A DNA stretch of 64,000 nt, taken from Acinetobacter phage vB_AbaSt_W16. The DNA is taken from the sequence record PP174317.1, one strand, 5' to 3'. Within the stretch, counting starts at the first letter, position 1; every line of letters starts with the position of its first letter. The position numbers and the translations under genes are program-made. This document shows, piece by piece, positions 21,534 to 26,442 of the stretch. The notes beneath the pieces are model-generated. The model was not told the DNA's origin, did no database searches, and saw nothing but the letters and a program-made list of their open reading frames with translations.

Positions 21534-22117
21534 AAGTCTACAGCTTCAACAAACTCTTTGTCATTTTTAATTTCAATATTTGCTGCAGCACATGCTGGTA
21601 ACGCTTTTTGAAATGCAGGATCATCTCTATATGATTTATCTTCGCCGGCAATAGCAGGTAATTCGTTTTCAAAATCATCGACATCATTAAACCCTGCAAT
21701 CTCAGACTCATTTAATTCGAGACCTACATTTTCACGTGGCAATTGAACTCGATCTTTTTCAGGAATAATCGGATAAGGTTTTAATGTTTCATCAACACAT
21801 TTTTCAACTTTAACTTGATACTCTTGTAATACAGTTGCGCCGTAATCACTAGACATATCAATATTTTTCAGTAAGTTTTCAAATTTAGAATTACATACGG
21901 CAATAGCTTTAAATGCAATTGAACCATATAATTCTGCGGCTTTATATTCGGCTTCAGTTTCAAGAGAAAAATTTGTATTAACAGTTGTATGCTCTTGAAG
22001 ATTTTTTACACCATATTGCATTTCGTTAACAGTAGGAGCTGCTGTAGCTTCTTTATGTGTACTACATCCAACTAAGCTTAAAGATGCGATTGAAATAGCT
22101 AAAAGTAATTTGTTCAT
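21512..22117 (-). CDS. lipoprotein (lipobox LVGC); start assigned to the MNKLLL ATG
   Basis: Signal peptide MNKLLLAISIASLSLVGC followed by STHKE; the tracked ORF extends to 22135. Confidence 0.55.
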   Translation of the reverse strand: MNKLLLAISIASLSLVGCSTHKEATAAPTVNEMQYGVKNLQEHTTVNTNFSLETEAEYKAAELYGSIAFKAIAVCNSKFENLLKNIDMSSDYGATVLQEYQVKVEKCVDETLKPYPIIPEKDRVQLPRENVGLELNESEIAGFNDVDDFENELPAIAGEDKSYRDDPAFQKALPACAAANIEIKNDKEFVEAVDFCALKAM

Positions 22118-22241
22118 GATTATCTCACAATACATTTATTCATTCATTGGTGCTATTATATAAGCAAAAAATTAAAAGCGTACATATATCAAATGTAAAC
22201 TTTTGTAACCGAAAAATAATTCAATTATTTTTCAATAAAGG

Positions 22242-22272
22242 GTTTACAAGTCGGTTGAACTGAGCCATAATA
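22242..22272 (+). promoter_or_regulatory. candidate early promoter (GTTTAC -35, 18-nt spacer, CATAAT -10) with an AT-rich UP region
   Basis: ggGTTTACaagtcggttgaactgagcCATAATac about 35 nt upstream of the ATG at 22305; T4 early promoters use a GTTTAC-type -35. Confidence 0.5.
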
Positions 22273-22304
22273 CACTCATACCAACACAACATGAGTAAAT
22301 TGAA

Positions 22305-22724
22305 ATGAAAAACTTATTTTTAGTAATGACTGCAAACTTCGAAGTTTCTTATGTATCTACTGCACCGGTTGCAGATAATGGAGCTGAAATTGTTGTACGT
22401 CAAGATATTCTTAAACATCTTAGTGTTACACAATTGGTTCAAATCGCTAAAAGCATGAACCCTGAATTAAAAGTTAATAATAAACAAGCGCGTGAAATCA
22501 TTCTTGCCGCTATTGATGAAGAAATTGTTAAAATCCCAGTTAAATCGACTGAAACTAAAACAGTATCTTCTAAATCAATTTGTTATGCGGCATTTGATTT
22601 AATCGATATGGATAATAAAGAAGTTGCACGTTCTACTGTTGAAGCTTTGATTACAGAGCACAATATTCCAAAACGTGTTGTTCAATCTTATGCATCAAAC
22701 TATCGTAAAGCTAAACGCGCATAA
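22305..22724 (+). CDS. hypothetical protein, lone plus-strand gene within the minus-strand early region
   Basis: 139 aa; has its own promoter-like element and a strong terminator. Confidence 0.6.
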   Translation: MKNLFLVMTANFEVSYVSTAPVADNGAEIVVRQDILKHLSVTQLVQIAKSMNPELKVNNKQAREIILAAIDEEIVKIPVKSTETKTVSSKSICYAAFDLIDMDNKEVARSTVEALITEHNIPKRVVQSYASNYRKAKRA

Positions 22725-22735
22725 AATTTAAGTAT

Positions 22736-22770
22736 GAAAAAACCCGCAAATTGCGGGTTTTCTTTTATTT
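22736..22770 (+). terminator. strong rho-independent terminator (A-run, ACCCGCAA-AT-TTGCGGGT, T-run); bidirectional
   Basis: gaaaaaaCCCGCAAATTGCGGGttttcttttattt. Confidence 0.85.
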
Positions 22771-22858
22771 GGCGGAAAGCAGTGTAGTCGAAACACAACC
22801 GATTTAACGGTCCACTCGGTTAGCAGTCGGTGCCAATGACCTCATTGATTTACTTTCC
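22770..22858 (-). ncRNA. tRNA-like element (type-II architecture, Ser-GCU-like anticodon loop CTGCTAA, encoded CCA) with a defective D-arm
   Basis: Acceptor GGAAAGT/GCTTTCC+G+CCA, T-arm GTGT-TTCGACT-ACAC, variable-arm hairpin ACCG-TTAAAT-CGGT; the D-arm cannot form canonically. Confidence 0.35.
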
Positions 22859-22859
22859 A

Positions 22860-23090
22860 TTATTGAATTACTGCAGTAGGTGTATAAAAATTAGATAATA
22901 CACTTAAAATCTTATCTAATTCAACTAATGCATGATATCGATTTTTATAAACTGATCTATGTTCGGTACATTCAACTTTGATACCAGTTGAAATATGAGT
23001 AACTCGAACACCTCTATCGGGCGTATTAACCCAATTACTATGTTTGCCTACTCTAAATGTATCAATTCTAATATCAGAAGGTAGTAGCAT
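22860..23090 (-). CDS. release-factor RF1 domain-3 (GGQ/peptidyl-tRNA hydrolase domain) homolog lacking the GGQ motif
   Basis: 76 aa; SDIRIDTFRVGKHSNWVNTPDRGVRVTHISTGIKVECTEHRSVYKNRYHAL aligns with bacterial RF1 ...[51 protein letters not shown] (from memory); GAGGQH replaced by GKHSNW; GAGGAAA RBS 7 nt upstream of the ATG. Confidence 0.7.
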   Translation of the reverse strand: MLLPSDIRIDTFRVGKHSNWVNTPDRGVRVTHISTGIKVECTEHRSVYKNRYHALVELDKILSVLSNFYTPTAVIQ

Positions 23091-23102
23091 TTTAATTTCC
23101 TC

Positions 23103-23216
23103 ATTTAAAAATACGAGCGGGAATCGAACCCGCTAGCGCCGTATGGTCTTACGCGAACCATTCTTTCAATGGAATCGAACCATCTGCAGCCTCCGCCGGC
23201 ACCTTCCACCAAGGTA
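23103..23216 (-). ncRNA. tRNA-like or degenerate region containing two GGTTCGATTCC T-arm motifs and an anticodon-like hairpin (loop CGCGTAA)
   Basis: Minus strand ...GATGG-TTCGATT-CCATT...TGGTT-CGCGTAA-GACCA...GCGGG-TTCGATT-CCCGC...; no canonical acceptor pairing found. Confidence 0.3.
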
Positions 23217-23666
23217 TCAGGTAATAATATAAATTGGTTTTTGTGGTAATATCGTCTCTAAATTATCAATAGTTCGACGAATTTTTGCCATCAAGTTTTT
23301 ATCAACAATTGCGTCAGGTCCAACATTAATAAAAACACGTTCGATTGTTTTAAGGGCATCAAATCCACGTAAGGAATTTGCATTTCTATAACCAGTAGAA
23401 AAAATAAAACAATCTTGGCCCAAATCAGATTTAAAATTCCGTGCTGCAGGTAAAGACTGTGCAACATAAAGATCAGTATCTTTATTAAAAATTTCTAAAA
23501 TATTTTTAGTACAATTAATAGGTGTGCACACATAAATCATACGATTGTAAATGGCATCTATAGGTTTATACGTTATTGGAGTTGTGGTTGCAGCTTTCTC
23601 TTTTACCTTATGGCATGTAAGATCTAAAAATCGTTGTAACTCATTCATAACATTCCATCCAAACAT
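23217..23666 (-). CDS. hypothetical protein
   Basis: 149 aa; the ATG follows directly after the terminator U-run and has no SD; the true start may be an internal Met. Confidence 0.5.
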   Translation of the reverse strand: MFGWNVMNELQRFLDLTCHKVKEKAATTTPITYKPIDAIYNRMIYVCTPINCTKNILEIFNKDTDLYVAQSLPAARNFKSDLGQDCFIFSTGYRNANSLRGFDALKTIERVFINVGPDAIVDKNLMAKIRRTIDNLETILPQKPIYIIT

Positions 23667-23703
23667 AATAAAAAATTGCCCAGGTTGGTAAGTTCAACCT
23701 GGG
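23666..23703 (-). terminator. rho-independent terminator downstream of the tRNA-Trp gene (CCCAGGTTG-7nt-CAACCTGGG followed by a U-run)
   Basis: Perfect 9-bp stem, then CAATTTTTTATT on the minus strand. Confidence 0.75.
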
Positions 23704-23734
23704 TCTTACAAGTCCCTTTAGGGAACTATTTGGC

Positions 23735-23806
23735 GGCGTCGCCAAGGACTCGAACCCTGGATTGCGGATTTGGAATCCACCGTGTTTCCAACTACACTAA
23801 CGACCC
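23735..23806 (-). tRNA. tRNA-Trp (anticodon CCA); CCA tail not encoded
   Basis: Cloverleaf: acceptor GGGTCGT/GCGACGC (one G-G mismatch at 2-71), D-arm GTGT-AGTTGGAA-ACAC, anticodon arm GTGGA-TTCCAAA-TCCGC, T-arm CAGGG-TTCGAGT-CCTTG. Confidence 0.6.
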
Positions 23807-24046
23807 TTAAACTGCAAATGTGCCAGCATGAAATAATCTCAAACACAATATAAAACCTGTTGTCAACGCAGGAAAGCTTAATGGCATGTCACGATATAAA
23901 TTGACAAGTGCATGCAAGCTGTTCTTTTTTAATTATATAGTAAGCACCAACAAATTGTGAAACGGTGGAATGAGTGAGGCAATTTGCTTTACTCAAGTAC
24001 CTATACTTACTATAGTGTATATTCGTCTTACGAGAAATATACAAAT

Positions 24047-24123
24047 TGGTCTCCGTAGAATGATTTGAACATTCGACACCTGCGTCCCAAACGCAGTGCT
24101 CTACCAGACTGAGCTATACGGAG
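24047..24123 (-). tRNA. tRNA-Pro (anticodon TGG), CCA encoded
   Basis: Perfect cloverleaf: CTCCGTA/TACGGAG acceptor, GCTC-AGTCTGGTA-GAGC, CTGCG-TTTGGGA-CGCAG, GAATG-TTCAAAT-CATTC, discriminator A+CCA. Confidence 0.9.
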
Positions 24124-24244
24124 TTAAATTGCCGTGAAATGTCCTTTTATACTTTCGAGCATTTCACCACTCAATAAGTAAATCTTGAAGCTTTATTTGT
24201 TTTACAAGAGGAAACTTCGTCCTGCTTATCAGGCAATTTAAAAA

Positions 24245-24339
24245 TGGCGGAAGGTGAGGGGGTCGAACCCTCAAGGCGTGTCACCACGCTCGACTGATTT
24301 CAAGTCAGCTGCCGTCGCCAGCTTTCGGCTTGACCTTCC
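24245..24339 (-). tRNA. tRNA-Ser (anticodon TGA), type II with a long variable arm, CCA encoded
   Basis: Acceptor GGAAGGT/ACCTTCC+G+CCA, anticodon arm GCTGA-CTTGAAA-TCAGT, variable arm GCGTG-GTGA-CACGC, T-arm GAGGG-TTCGACC-CCCTC. Confidence 0.85.
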
Positions 24340-24406
24340 AATAAAATATTGACGACCTAAGAACCTTTACACCAATAATGGAGACTTAGGACCCTTTACA
24401 TCAATT

Positions 24407-24485
24407 TGGCTCCCACCGTGAGATTCGAACTCACCTAACCTCGGATTAACAGTCCGGTCCATGCACCTAGCTCGGATTCGTGGGA
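24407..24485 (-). tRNA. tRNA-Asn-like (anticodon GTT) with an 11-nt D-loop, CCA encoded
   Basis: Acceptor TCCCACG/GGTGGGA (one 7-66 mismatch), anticodon arm CCGGA-CTGTTAA-TCCGA (one mismatch), T-arm GTGAG-TTCGAAT-CTCAC. Confidence 0.55.
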
Positions 24486-24492
24486 ATAATTC

Positions 24493-24568
24493 TGGTGCCG
24501 ACACGAGGATTTGAACCCCGGACCCTCTGATTACAAAACAGACGCTCTACCAACTGAGCTATGACGGC
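24493..24568 (-). tRNA. tRNA-Thr (anticodon TGT), CCA encoded
   Basis: Acceptor GCCGTCA/TGTCGGC (one U-U mismatch), D-arm GCTC-AGTTGGTA-GAGC, anticodon arm TCTGT-TTTGTAA-TCAGA, T-arm CGGGG-TTCAAAT-CCTCG, A+CCA. Confidence 0.8.
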
Positions 24569-24570
24569 AA

Positions 24571-24662
24571 ATCATTAATCAAATGAACCCAGGATACAAT
24601 TCGAATTTTGCGAGGATAAGTCGCTCATCTACCGGTATCGCCAAGATCATTTGATTAATGAT
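24571..24662 (-). ncRNA. structured RNA element closed by a perfect 16-bp stem (ATCATTAATCAAATGA/TCATTTGATTAATGAT) immediately 5' of tRNA-Thr
   Basis: Exact 16-nt inverted repeat flanking a 60-nt core that contains a TTCGAAT T-loop-like motif and internal hairpins. Confidence 0.35.
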
Positions 24663-24765
24663 CTTATACATTTATTTATACAACCCAAAAGGGCACCAGT
24701 ATGACCACTTGCCGAGAACACAGTGAGTTAAAACTCTTTATGACAAGATTAATAAAATTTGATCG

Positions 24766-24826
24766 TTAAAACTTTGAACTTTACGAAATAAAAACTTTAA
24801 TCTTTGAGATTTAAACTTTAAGCTTT
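24766..24826. repeat. three degenerate tandem repeats (~18 bp, AAAACTTTgAAcTTT-like) in the noncoding region upstream of the tRNA cluster
   Basis: taaaactttgaacttt / ataaaaactttaatcttt / tttaaactttaagcttt. Confidence 0.4.
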
Positions 24827-24970
24827 CGCAATTTTGGGATAATGTACAGTCTTCGCGCATGGGAATCTGTATCACCATCAAAGTTCTATAACCTTAGAAG
24901 TTAGCCGATTTTAGGATGCATCGGCTAGAACCCTCTACAGTTTTTGATCATACTGATTTTATTTAAAACA

Positions 24971-25540
24971 TTAATCTAAAACAATTAATGGATTATTTTC
25001 TGTTAAAATTGCGTCGAATTCAAGCTCGAAGAAATCTATTGTCTTTTTAATTTCATCGAGTTCTTCTTGTATGTCCAGAATTGTAGGTTTTTCTCGTTTT
25101 TCCAACAATGTCTTGAACTCGGCGTCATCTGATGGAGTTTTGAGCATCTTGGCATCAAACTCACGTTCAACTTGAACAAACAGTGAACGATTTGCAGCTA
25201 AATCTTTTTGCATTTTAGCATATAAGGCTTTAAGCTGAGGTAAAACATGAGTACGATACGTTAACGCATCATTAATACTCATTTCCATGCTGCCAATTTG
25301 AATTGTATGCTTTGCATTGGCACGATTAATAGCACAGCGTAATTTAAATTCTTCCGCTAAACGGTCTTTAAATGATTGGATATTACGACGACTTCCTTCG
25401 GAAAATTCTTTAATCGGTCGTGCTGTTGAAATTTCAACTCCATTACGGAATACACCAGAAAATGCTGCATCACGAAGATCTGAAGTGAATGATACTTTAT
25501 TGCGTTTTAACGTAACTAAACCACGAGCGATTGTAGTCAT
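24971..25540 (-). CDS. hypothetical protein
   Basis: 189 aa; helical/charged; no motif recognised. Confidence 0.5.
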   Translation of the reverse strand: MTTIARGLVTLKRNKVSFTSDLRDAAFSGVFRNGVEISTARPIKEFSEGSRRNIQSFKDRLAEEFKLRCAINRANAKHTIQIGSMEMSINDALTYRTHVLPQLKALYAKMQKDLAANRSLFVQVEREFDAKMLKTPSDDAEFKTLLEKREKPTILDIQEELDEIKKTIDFFELEFDAILTENNPLIVLD

Positions 25541-25613
25541 AATAAATTCCTCTATTCAAAAATAAACTTTATGTGATCATTATATCATTAAATTATGAAA
25601 AGCAACTTAATTA

Positions 25614-25766
25614 CTAATCATGTCCAACTTTTTTATTACATAGTATACAAGTAGATTCTTTAGAATAATAACCCATATCATTTAACATTCTAGCTGTATA
25701 TGAATCATTATCTTTAGTTACTTGATAATAATGTTTGCAAAATAACTGTTTGAAGAACTTAATCAT
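25614..25766 (-). CDS. possible small Cys/His protein (50 aa)
   Basis: MIKFFKQLFCKHYY...CILCNKKVGHD; its ATG overlaps the upstream stop (ATGA); below the tracker's length cutoff. Confidence 0.3.
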   Translation of the reverse strand: MIKFFKQLFCKHYYQVTKDNDSYTARMLNDMGYYSKESTCILCNKKVGHD

Positions 25767-26005
25767 TTAAGACGCACCTTGGCTTCAAAAACAAATCTGT
25801 ATTCATCATCCGTCAAAACTTTGGCTCGTTCATAAGAAGTTGCCATTCTTAAAACGGCACCAGTATATGATACAATTGCAAAAACACAATTCTTAGAATC
25901 TTTATTGGCAATTTCACCAACTTTAAATCTAAATTTTTTATACGTATATTTATTATCATACGTACATAAAAATTGTGCTAAATTTTTAGAAAATGTAAAT
26001 CTCAT
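25763..26005 (-). CDS. hypothetical protein
   Basis: 80 aa. Confidence 0.4.
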   Translation of the reverse strand: MRFTFSKNLAQFLCTYDNKYTYKKFRFKVGEIANKDSKNCVFAIVSYTGAVLRMATSYERAKVLTDDEYRFVFEAKVRLK

Positions 26006-26206
26006 TAATTTACCATCTTCATTTAAAATTCCATAAATTGAACGGCTTGATGTTTTATCAATGCACTTGCGACAAATCTATTTATTCATGGTAAACCTCA
26101 TCAATTAAGGGTTAAAAGAAATAAAGGAGGTTTTTCATTCAAGGACCTCATACCTTTGCCAATGAGAGGGCATGCTAAGCAGTGGTCACATCTCAGGCTA
26201 TGAATT

Positions 26207-26282
26207 TGGTGGATACCGGGAGTGCTTGCACCTCCAATCAACTACGTTGTCCGCTGCTTTACTATTTAAGCTAACAGTACCC
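26207..26282 (-). ncRNA. tRNA-like element (paired acceptor stem with two G-U pairs plus encoded CCA) with non-canonical D, anticodon and T arms
   Basis: GGGTACT...GGTATCC-A-CCA, 76 nt; T-arm GGAG-9nt-CTCC lacks the TTC consensus; no 7-nt anticodon loop can be drawn. Confidence 0.3.
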
Positions 26283-26283
26283 A

Positions 26284-26360
26284 TGGAGACGCCGGATGGA
26301 TTCGAACCCTCATCGACGCGGATTTGCAATCCGCCGCATAACCAATTCTGCCACGACGTC
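26284..26360 (-). tRNA. tRNA-Cys (anticodon GCA), CCA encoded
   Basis: Acceptor GACGTCG/CGGCGTC, anticodon arm GCGGA-TTGCAAA-TCCGC, T-loop TTCGAAT, T+CCA. Confidence 0.75.
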
Positions 26361-26367
26361 TTAAACT

Positions 26368-26442
26368 TGGTGGGCCCAGGGAATTTCGAAATCCCAACCT
26401 TCAGATTATGAGTCTGCTGCTCCGCCTTTGAGCTATAGGCCC
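26368..26442 (-). tRNA. tRNA-Met/Ile2 (anticodon CAT), CCA encoded
   Basis: Acceptor GGGCCTA/TGGGCCC+A+CCA, D-arm GCTC-AAAGGCG-GAGC, anticodon loop CTCATAA, T-loop TTCGAAA; the 5' 10 nt overlap the stop of the GIY-YIG gene. Confidence 0.75.

Follow-up and report, generated by a model that had tools for sequence, protein, structure and literature searches.

A stand-alone homolog of release factor domain 3 without the GGQ motif, encoded in the tRNA cluster of an Acinetobacter phage, belongs to a phage clade with an invariant loop tryptophan

What might a phage do with a release factor (RF) domain that lacks the catalytic GGQ tripeptide? The question is raised by a small gene in a 64,000-nucleotide stretch of Acinetobacter phage vB_AbaSt_W16 (PP174317.1), called the window here. 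The gene is an open reading frame (ORF) on the minus strand that ends in TAA (ORF list and sequence; coordinates of this and other features are collected in Table 1), and its 76-amino-acid (aa) product is MLLPSDIRIDTFRVGKHSNWVNTPDRGVRVTHISTGIKVECTEHRSVYKNRYHALVELDKILSVLSNFYTPTAVIQ. Positions 22300-24600 of the window are 99.6% identical to NC_018087.3, the record of phage ZZ1 (Straboviridae, Twarogvirinae, Zedzedvirus), in a match that includes an indel of about 92 bp; the counterpart of the gene there is ZZ1p0148 (YP_006488787.1), which carries the RefSeq name "RF-1 domain peptide chain release factor," and we refer to the window gene and protein as ZZ1 or ZZ1p0148 after it. Few motifs in biology are as universally conserved as GGQ, which the characterized bacterial RF-type hydrolase domains (RF1, RF2, ArfB, and PrfH) all keep. 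An earlier reading of the window from its letters, referred to here as the original prediction, had described the product as a stand-alone mimic of the RF1 catalytic domain in which GGQ is replaced; the ribosome-binding site GAGGAAA that it gave for the gene is present.

Profile searches place the protein in domain 3 of the bacterial release factors, the RF peptidyl-hydrolase (RF-PH) domain. Residues 4 to 62 matched the Pfam family RF-1 (PF00472; E=3e-10; 40.5 bits, where the gathering cutoff is 35), and in a phmmer search of PDB sequences, residues 3 to 58 were aligned with residues 218 to 274 of Escherichia coli RF1 chains (E=1.7e-11). Identity to RF1 is about 40 to 45% over some 56 residues and includes RIDTFR, VRxTHxxTGI, VEC, and RSxxKN. 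The full-length models TIGR00019 (prfA; E=4e-13; 49 bits against a cutoff of 423) and TIGR00020 (prfB; 43 bits against 370) were matched only at model positions 221 to 283; with only 76 aa, ZZ1p0148 does not have the full-length architecture of a class I release factor (PCRF domain, PxT/SPF motif, and codon-recognition superdomain). Its match to phrog_20323 is a full-length one (E=1.1e-37; residues 1 to 72 on profile positions 1 to 73 of 73). An AlphaFold2 model made with 33 homologs (mean predicted local distance difference test score [pLDDT], 86.6) has the order strand-strand-strand-helix (strands at residues 7 to 12, 27 to 32, and 38 to 41 and a helix at 47 to 66), and the best Foldseek matches to it in the PDB were domain 3 of ribosome-bound RF1 and RF2 (query template modeling score [TMq], 0.72-0.79; root mean square deviation [rmsd], about 2.5 Å). 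The RF1-PrmC complex 2b3t was also among the fold matches, only since RF1 is in it. When the profile of the clade described below was run against the PDB, it matched RF1 and RF2 at E values of about 1e-20, PrfH at 6e-11, and C12orf65 at 1e-8, and no ArfB chain was among its PDB matches at E≤0.001. The profile fits RF1/RF2 far better than PrfH or C12orf65, with ArfB absent at that threshold, and the clade thus descends from domain 3 of RF1/RF2; the RIDTFR motif together with the slightly higher prfA score points to RF1 as the source. The original prediction, which gave an RF1 sequence for comparison and named a PF00472 profile search as a check, had claimed a stand-alone RF1 domain 3 homolog without codon-recognition domains. 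The RF1 sequence that it gave agrees with the PDB alignment, the profile score lies above the gathering cutoff, and both parts of the claim are borne out, the first by sequence (Pfam, prfA, RF1 in the PDB, and the clade profile) and by predicted fold and the second by the restriction of the matches to domain 3 model positions.

The GGQ tripeptide is truly replaced, as the original prediction had supposed. In the HMMER alignment, H17-S18-N19-W20 stands opposite G233-G234-Q235-H236 of RF1, with a one-residue deletion immediately ahead of the loop. The author of the prediction had allowed that a sequencing or frame error might conceal an intact motif. No GGQ, or even GG, occurs in any of the six frames of 22800..23150, and phage Henu6, which was sequenced independently, encodes an identical protein; such an error is therefore excluded.

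The replacement is not peculiar to ZZ1p0148. A tblastn search with the protein matched 118 phage records, 66 of which are Acinetobacter phages. A single-sequence word-index search returned ZZ1p0148 alone, and relatives were reached with an eight-sequence alignment: 262 proteins were collected from a profile search of a collection of 5.8 billion sequences and from an exhaustive hidden Markov model search of 1.84 billion cluster representatives, and the E. coli RF1 fragment was added as a reference, giving 263 aligned RF-PH domains. GGQ is present in 204 of these (the 204/204 that define the GGQ class) and absent from 57, and 2 belong to neither class. At the column of RF1 His236, all 57 GGQ-less domains have Trp. 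Other positions conserved among these 57 sequences, in ZZ1p0148 numbering, are P4 (98%), H32 (98%), P34 (92%), T35 (94%), G36 (80%), R/K45 (97%), S46 (96%), Q47 (85%), N50 (96%), K/R51 (99%), A54 (94%), and L58 (96%). The scaffold-motif columns among them (H32, T35, G36, R/K45, S46, N50, and K/R51) are 84 to 100% conserved in the GGQ class as well. The Trp class has lost ten columns whose conservation in the GGQ class is 96 to 100% (D10, R13, G15, G17, Q19, N22, T24, S26, R29, and Q42); the loop-flank columns G15, N22, T24, S26, and R29, at 99 to 100% in the GGQ class, are lost in ZZ1p0148 and the clade alike. Within the tripeptide itself, the first Gly is gone from every Trp-class member, small residues still fill the column of the second Gly (G, 54%; S, 31%), and various residues occupy that of the Gln (G, 31%; N, 22%; Q, 15%; also A, S, or R). 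Loop length differs by about 3 residues between subclades.

ZZ1p0148 itself has W20, H32, T35, G36, R45, S46, K49, N50, and R51 of the clade signature (the beta-hairpin motif HxPTG and, where the helix begins, R-S-Q-x-K-N-K/R) and deviates from it at two columns, with S34 for the Pro found in 92% and V47 for the Gln found in 85%. Members with the Trp loop come from four genera of Twarogvirinae and from Pseudomonas, Xanthomonas, Vibrio, and marine phages (loop sequences in Table 1). In a neighbor-joining tree on the 52 non-loop columns, pure Trp clades of 37, 12, 6, and 1 sequences were seen, and for 44 of 56 the nearest neighbor was in the Trp class; the group is coherent and may, but need not, have a single origin. 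Conservation of this kind is what would be expected of a kept scaffold with a repurposed active loop, not of decay. The loss of GGQ and the gain of Trp, common to at least 57 phage-type proteins, are clade-wide, and ZZ1p0148 represents a conserved, uncharacterized variant rather than a decayed gene.

Some clade members are longer. In those of Pseudomonas and Xanthomonas phages, the Trp-loop domain is followed by a C-terminal region of about 100 aa with many basic and aromatic residues (...PKAKPRIYWTYYPKSRRGYWRVS...KAxxFxRRLN...), and the basic/aromatic motif of these regions recurs in unrelated metagenomic members. Pfam searches with the extensions of the longer members returned nothing informative, the extensions being varied and without recognizable domains; the C-terminal extension might be an anchoring or targeting module that is absent from the 76-aa protein. 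One tblastn match, in "Pseudomonas phage Y1" (OQ572403.1, UNVERIFIED; locus L009), was discarded because it is full-length and RF2-like with an intact GGQ loop. The RF2-like gene of that record lies in GC-rich DNA that looks like host chromosome and is probably not a phage gene.

The gene evolves under constraint. Its closest relative is P0040, encoded on a syntenic T4-like metagenomic contig (L010), with 54% identity over aligned residues; the ratio of nonsynonymous to synonymous substitution rates (dN/dS) from this one pairwise comparison is 0.48, and those of three neighboring genes are 0.13-0.28. Both proteins keep MLLPS at the N terminus, GVRVTHI.TG in the core, and NFYTPTxVIQ at the C terminus. 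The C-terminal tail is also kept among other Acinetobacter phage members (NFYTPTTVIQ, EFYTPSDLIQ, and LFYEPTQTYS in the alignments). These ratios indicate that the RF-like gene is under purifying selection, albeit relaxed, and that it has been evolving faster than its surroundings. Faster evolution under purifying selection is typical of small host-interacting phage proteins.

What would such a protein do? We tentatively propose, at somewhat less than even chances, that ZZ1p0148 is a non-hydrolyzing derivative of RF domain 3, belonging to the phage Trp-loop clade, that competes with or modulates host release or rescue factors. Work by Shaw and Green in 2007 and by Zavialov et al. in 2002 reportedly found that substitution is tolerated much less well at the two glycines of GGQ than at the Gln side chain. 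In published structures, GGQ sits at the apex of a compact loop, adjacent to A76 of the P-site tRNA and fixed by A2602, and it is the backbone amide of the Gln that catalyzes hydrolysis (PMC6742477, PMC5799190); both ArfB and the RFs lose hydrolysis when GGQ is mutated (PMC8012679). Since every member of the clade is without the first Gly and the residue at the Gln position varies, efficient hydrolysis is unlikely; ZZ1p0148, with both glycines gone, on whose backbone geometry the reaction depends, would not be a competent peptidyl-tRNA hydrolase. Its conserved scaffold may dock at the site of RF domain 3, and the invariant Trp at the loop tip could insert or stack, engaging the peptidyl transferase center (PTC) or the CCA end. 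The outcome during infection would be competition with, or modulation of, host release and rescue factors, or general occupancy of the A site. The protein is basic (isoelectric point [pI], 9.4), as expected of an RNA binder. UAG specificity is impossible because the decoding superdomain is absent; the protein would act without stop-codon specificity, and not as a unit with the phage's CUA-anticodon tRNA. A non-hydrolyzing occupant of the PTC is plausible as the most economical mechanism. A wider claim, that Trp-loop proteins are widespread phage "anti-release factors" that block or retime release and rescue by host RF1, RF2, or ArfB, strikes us as rather doubtful.

Several observations weigh against a non-hydrolyzing RF derivative that acts at the ribosome. 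Deletion of 10 residues from the basic C-terminal tail of ArfB abolishes its ribosome binding (PMC8012679), and domain 3 of RF1 and RF2 is directed to the PTC by contacts of the switch loop, H69, and the decoding center (PMC6742477). ZZ1p0148 has neither switch-loop or decoding features nor a basic tail (its tail, DKILSVLSNFYTPTAVIQ, has a pI of 5.8 and a single basic residue), and ribosome binding by the bare domain is questionable. The retained motifs could be purely structural, as a hairpin turn and a helix cap, rather than rRNA contacts. R13, N22, T24, S26, and R29 flank the loop and hardly vary in true RFs, but the clade does not conserve them; the PTC-docking surface is thus remodeled rather than preserved. 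To this may be added the splitting of the Trp class into separate pure clades in the 52-column tree.

The setting of the gene varies with the lineage. It lies within a tRNA cluster at six Acinetobacter T4-like loci (ZZ1, Berthold, Minot, Acj9, and two metagenomic contigs), and a CUA-anticodon tRNA co-occurs in ZZ1, Berthold, Minot, Acj9, and L011. This tRNA, which the original prediction had placed about 4.2 kb away, was found at a distance of 4.1 kb. It is kept in several genera of Twarogvirinae with covarying stems and an encoded CCA and is a potential amber suppressor. TAG is the rarest stop in the window (4/87 ORFs), with read-through extensions of 0 to 16 codons. The 43-kb siphovirus Pseudomonas phage 73 is entirely without tRNA genes, and no tRNA was found in the scanned 3- to 6-kb flanks of the gene in Xanthomonas phage NR08, two Vibrio phages, and a 110-kb marine contig; in NR08, the Vibrio phages, and the marine contig, the gene sits among small early-type genes or behind a primase. 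An all-against-all comparison of ORFs within ±3.5 kb revealed no gene other than the RF-like one common to three lineages. Because no conserved phage-encoded partner is evident, the target is probably a host component common to Gammaproteobacteria. None of the families among the anti-phage defense and anti-defense models of PADLOC was matched (0 at E≤0.1). Lineage-specific synteny, in a plastic region with many homing endonucleases, best accounts for the location in the tRNA cluster. The termination-modulating module that the original prediction had drawn from the gene and the CUA tRNA is thus not upheld: the clade occurs in a phage without tRNAs and at other loci with none in the 3 to 6 kb of scanned flank, no neighbor is shared, and a decoding module is lacking.

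The same prediction had placed the gene between tRNA-like RNAs, which held for one flank only. Directly 3' of the stop codon lies a homolog of tRNA-Ser(GCU), 85% identical to the tRNA-Ser(gct) that ARAGORN calls in Minot (L008 5053..5141) and 90% identical to an unannotated sequence in Berthold (L002 6061..6149). Its anticodon arm has the loop CUGCUAA and a weak stem, and in the window neither ARAGORN nor the Rfam tRNA model called it. Its identity between ZZ1 and L010 is 98.9%, while the region around it is only 83% identical; it is therefore strongly constrained, either as a functional tRNA-Ser(GCU) that has escaped annotation or as a stable RNA derived from a tRNA. The 5' flank, by contrast, has only two T-arm-like motifs (GGTTCGATTCC), one of which scores as a terminator-like hairpin, and folds no better than shuffled sequence; it may be a pair of decayed tRNAs, and ARAGORN and Rfam called no tRNA in it. 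An Rfam search of 22000..28000 returned known tRNAs only, with neither flank of the gene matched at E≤1.

Alternatives to a non-hydrolyzing RF derivative differ in what they make of the lost motif. That the gene is a functionless, decaying, pseudogene-like remnant of a captured prfA fragment has next to no chance and is largely refuted by conservation. The shortness of the protein, its want of a catalytic motif, and a constraint relaxed relative to its neighbors would suit such a remnant, but the ORF is intact and has a ribosome-binding site, the same position is conserved in at least 66 Acinetobacter phage records, at least 10 columns, including the gained Trp, are invariant or nearly so across proteins that are only 30 to 45% identical, dN/dS is below 1, and the structure prediction is confident. 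A degenerate ArfB-like remnant, as the original prediction had alternatively suggested, is not supported, given the Trp found in 57/57 domains, the scaffold motifs at 80 to 99%, the dN/dS of 0.48, and a profile that matches RF1 and RF2 but no ArfB chain at E≤0.001. It is also unlikely that the protein is still a peptidyl-tRNA hydrolase or ribosome rescue factor, ArfB-like in function, with a different loop; if it catalyzes release without GGQ, this would be even more surprising. The Trp would then mimic an A-site ligand such as A76 and so trigger the PTC's own hydrolysis, and the phage would gain by clearing ribosomes stalled by host shut-off or by tRNA-cleaving defenses. RF catalysis does run through a backbone amide and the ribosome itself rather than the Gln side chain (PMC6742477), the second-Gly position is small and some members have G-Q-W, several database records carry the label "putative peptidyl-tRNA hydrolase," and an RF-1-domain gene that is a core coding sequence of some mycobacterial tRNA arrays was read by its authors as extra rescue capacity (PMC5966550). 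Yet no member retains the first Gly, the Gln column ranges over G, N, Q, A, S, and R, mutations of GGQ abolish hydrolysis, neither a basic tail nor a decoding domain is available for anchoring on stalled ribosomes, and subclade loops differ in length. A further reading takes the protein for a decoy that binds, without being a substrate, a nonribosomal recognizer of RF domain 3, such as PrmC/HemK (the RF glutamine methyltransferase), a host toxin, or a defense protein. In its favor, a new loop has taken the place of the substrate loop on a preserved scaffold, dN/dS is raised over that of the neighbors as is common for host-interacting proteins, the non-basic NFYTPTxVIQ common to the Acinetobacter phage members resembles a protein-binding motif, members from other phages have varied N- and C-terminal extensions without known domains, and the fold matches included RF1-PrmC, if only through its RF1. 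We nevertheless hold a decoy to be improbable, as no defense-system model was matched, inhibition of PrmC should matter little in a short lytic cycle, and nothing points to a specific partner.

Two other readings draw on the tRNA cluster. An RNA-binding protein for tRNAs or tRNA cluster transcripts, serving in processing, protection, or binding of CCA ends, would fit the position of the gene at the six Acinetobacter loci, the highly conserved tRNA-Ser(GCU)-like RNA immediately after it, the basic character of the protein, and the fact that RF domain 3 naturally lies next to the P-site tRNA, at its acceptor end (PMC6742477); it has a slight chance, given that phage 73 is without tRNAs, that none was seen in the scanned 3 to 6 kb of flank at the Xanthomonas, Vibrio, and marine loci, and that vertical inheritance in a plastic, homing endonuclease-rich region explains the synteny in Twarogvirinae. 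That the protein counters RF1 and works with the phage CUA tRNA to increase UAG read-through is very improbable. The two genes do occur together in five loci, the CUA tRNA is conserved with covarying stems, and the domain is slightly nearer RF1 than RF2 (49 versus 43 bits; RIDTFR motif), but without a decoding domain there is no UAG specificity, clade members are found in phages without tRNA genes, and TAG is the rarest stop, with read-through adding only 0 to 16 codons.

Comparison with known systems shows where the protein stands. Domain 3 of RF1 and RF2 (PF00472; the bRF-PH domain of Burroughs and Aravind 2019, PMC6514570) has the same strand-strand-strand-helix fold as that predicted for ZZ1p0148, which differs in having no domains 1, 2, and 4, hence no codon recognition or switch loop, in the change of GGQ-His to xxx-Trp, and in the lost loop-flank residues. 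ArfB (YaeJ), mitochondrial ICT1, and C12orf65 are, like ZZ1p0148, stand-alone RF-PH domains without a decoding domain; they keep GGQ, however, and need a basic C-terminal tail in the mRNA channel (PMC8012679), and ZZ1p0148 has neither. Its sequence is also much nearer to RF1/RF2 than to the ArfB group (C12orf65, E=1e-8). The concept of an RF hydrolase domain that has lost the catalytic Gln, and for which ribosome binding without catalysis has been proposed, is found in Dom34/Pelota, most baeRF-1 families, and the bRF-PH domain of MRPS35 (PMC6514570), but Dom34 and baeRF-1 have the unrelated archaeo-eukaryotic aeRF-1 fold and MRPS35 is a structural ribosomal protein of eukaryotes; none of the three is phage encoded, and none has been described with an invariant loop Trp. 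The survey of Burroughs and Aravind (2019) makes no mention of phage versions (PMC6514570). PrfH (RF-H) is likewise a truncated RF homolog on mobile or conflict loci, with weak sequence and fold similarity to ZZ1p0148, but it keeps GGQ and a decoding-like domain and has RtcB as a partner; ZZ1p0148 scored 35.7 bits against the TIGR03072 cutoff of 166.65, the match being confined to the domain 3 part of the model, and no RtcB gene was found near the RF-like gene, whose neighbors are hypothetical proteins and tRNAs. In the G1 tRNA arrays of mycobacteria (Morgado and Vicente 2018, PMC5966550), compared here by description, an RF-1-domain coding sequence also lies within a tRNA array on mobile DNA. 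No mycobacteriophage was among the tblastn matches to ZZ1p0148, and the fold match to Mycobacterium phage Phabba was a distant one (E=0.037).

RefSeq and PHROGs already list the gene with its RF-1 label. ZZ1p0148 has full-length membership in PHROG 20323, and the gene occupies the same position in ZZ1, Berthold, Minot, and Acj9; together with the RefSeq name, this family and its occurrence in four Twarogvirinae genera tell against the original prediction's statement that no such system is known in T4-type phages. Without GGQ, the activity implied by the existing names "release factor" and "putative peptidyl-tRNA hydrolase" is unlikely. In a full-text search of the literature, no description was found of GGQ-less phage RF-1 domains with a loop Trp, and the clade-wide replacement of GGQ by Trp and its functional implication appear to be undescribed. 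A kept scaffold combined with an invariant-Trp loop suggests that phages have repurposed an RF domain as an inhibitor, modulator, or decoy of host termination or rescue. If so, these proteins would be natural protein ligands of a new class, directed at the PTC or the RF machinery, and the misleading annotations in the retrieved phage records would be corrected. Many of the records are phages of Acinetobacter baumannii of the kind considered for therapy, and the proteins are tiny (about 70 to 80 aa) and easily tested.

Table 1. Features of the release factor-like gene, its surroundings in the window, and related loci (positions are those of the window unless a locus is named)
Feature	Position	Strand	Evidence or remark
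Coding sequence ZZ1p0148, stand-alone RF1/RF2 domain 3 (RF-PH) homolog without GGQ	22860..23090	-	ORF list, Pfam, PHROG, PDB, AlphaFold2, Foldseek
Ribosome-binding site GAGGAAA, 5 nt from the ATG on the upstream side	23096..23102	-	Sequence
Remodeled loop, residues 14-22 (VGKHSNWVN), in place of the RF1 catalytic loop; Trp20 codon, 23031..23033	23025..23051	-	HMMER alignment, column statistics, frame check
Retained scaffold motifs, residues 32-52: H32-x-x-T35-G36, R45-S46-x-x-K49-N50-R51, and start of the helix equivalent to RF alpha7	22935..22997	-	Column statistics
C-terminal tail NFYTPTAVIQ, non-basic	22863..22892	-	Alignments; tail pI 5.8
tRNA-Ser(GCU)-like RNA, 89 nt, with GCCA at its end, next to the RF-like stop codon on its 3' side	22770..22858	-	Cloverleaf-like fold, z=-3.6
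GC-rich hairpin between T and A runs	22739..22761		Terminator scan, fold
5' intergenic stretch with two GGTTCGATTCC T-arm-like motifs	23105..23212	-	Sequence; fold z=-0.94, not significant
CUA-anticodon tRNA ("tRNA-Pyl" per ARAGORN)	27230..27303	-	4.1 kb from the RF-like gene
CUA tRNA counterparts	L002 3222..3296; L008 2349..2423; L011 1200..1273		
Fused Trp-loop members	L004 2995..3489 (Pseudomonas phage 73 ORF037); L005 2995..3507		Also P0126, P0007, P0212
Loop, Berthold (Lazarusvirus)			TGGARRW
Loop, Minot (Hadassahvirus)			KGASNW
Loop, Acj9 (Acajnonavirus)			SKQTTW
Loop, Pseudomonas phage 73			PGASAW
Loop, Xanthomonas phage NR08			PGASAW
Loop, Vibrio phages			NLGGW / SLGNW

Around the RF-like gene, the flanking genes at 23217..23666 (minus strand) and 22305..22724 (plus strand) belong to phrog_20652 and phrog_9997, respectively, both PHROGs of unknown function, and neither had a Pfam or PADLOC match. 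The second encodes 139 aa and is convergent with the RF-like unit; the GC-rich hairpin between them is likely a bidirectional terminator that ends both the minus-strand unit and this convergent ORF. Farther along the cluster, tRNA-Ser(UGA), a class II tRNA of 95 nt at 24245..24339 (minus strand), scored best on the Rfam model for tRNA-Sec (38.1 bits, below the threshold of 47); a selenocysteine tRNA was rejected, the match being an artifact of the long variable arm. In the window, the tRNAs for Cys and Met are separated by 7 nt and followed by a gap of about 700 nt, whereas the NC_018087.3 annotation has 194 nt between Cys and Met and 8 nt between Met and Arg. This unlike spacing, like the indel of about 92 bp, shows that the tRNA region of the window departs from that version of the record. 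Between tRNA-Met and tRNA-Arg, an ORF of 220 aa at 26433..27095 (minus strand), with TAG as its stop, has weak matches to GIY-YIG, SegE, and NUMOD3, of which NUMOD3 alone passes the Pfam cutoff; it likely encodes a Seg-type homing endonuclease.

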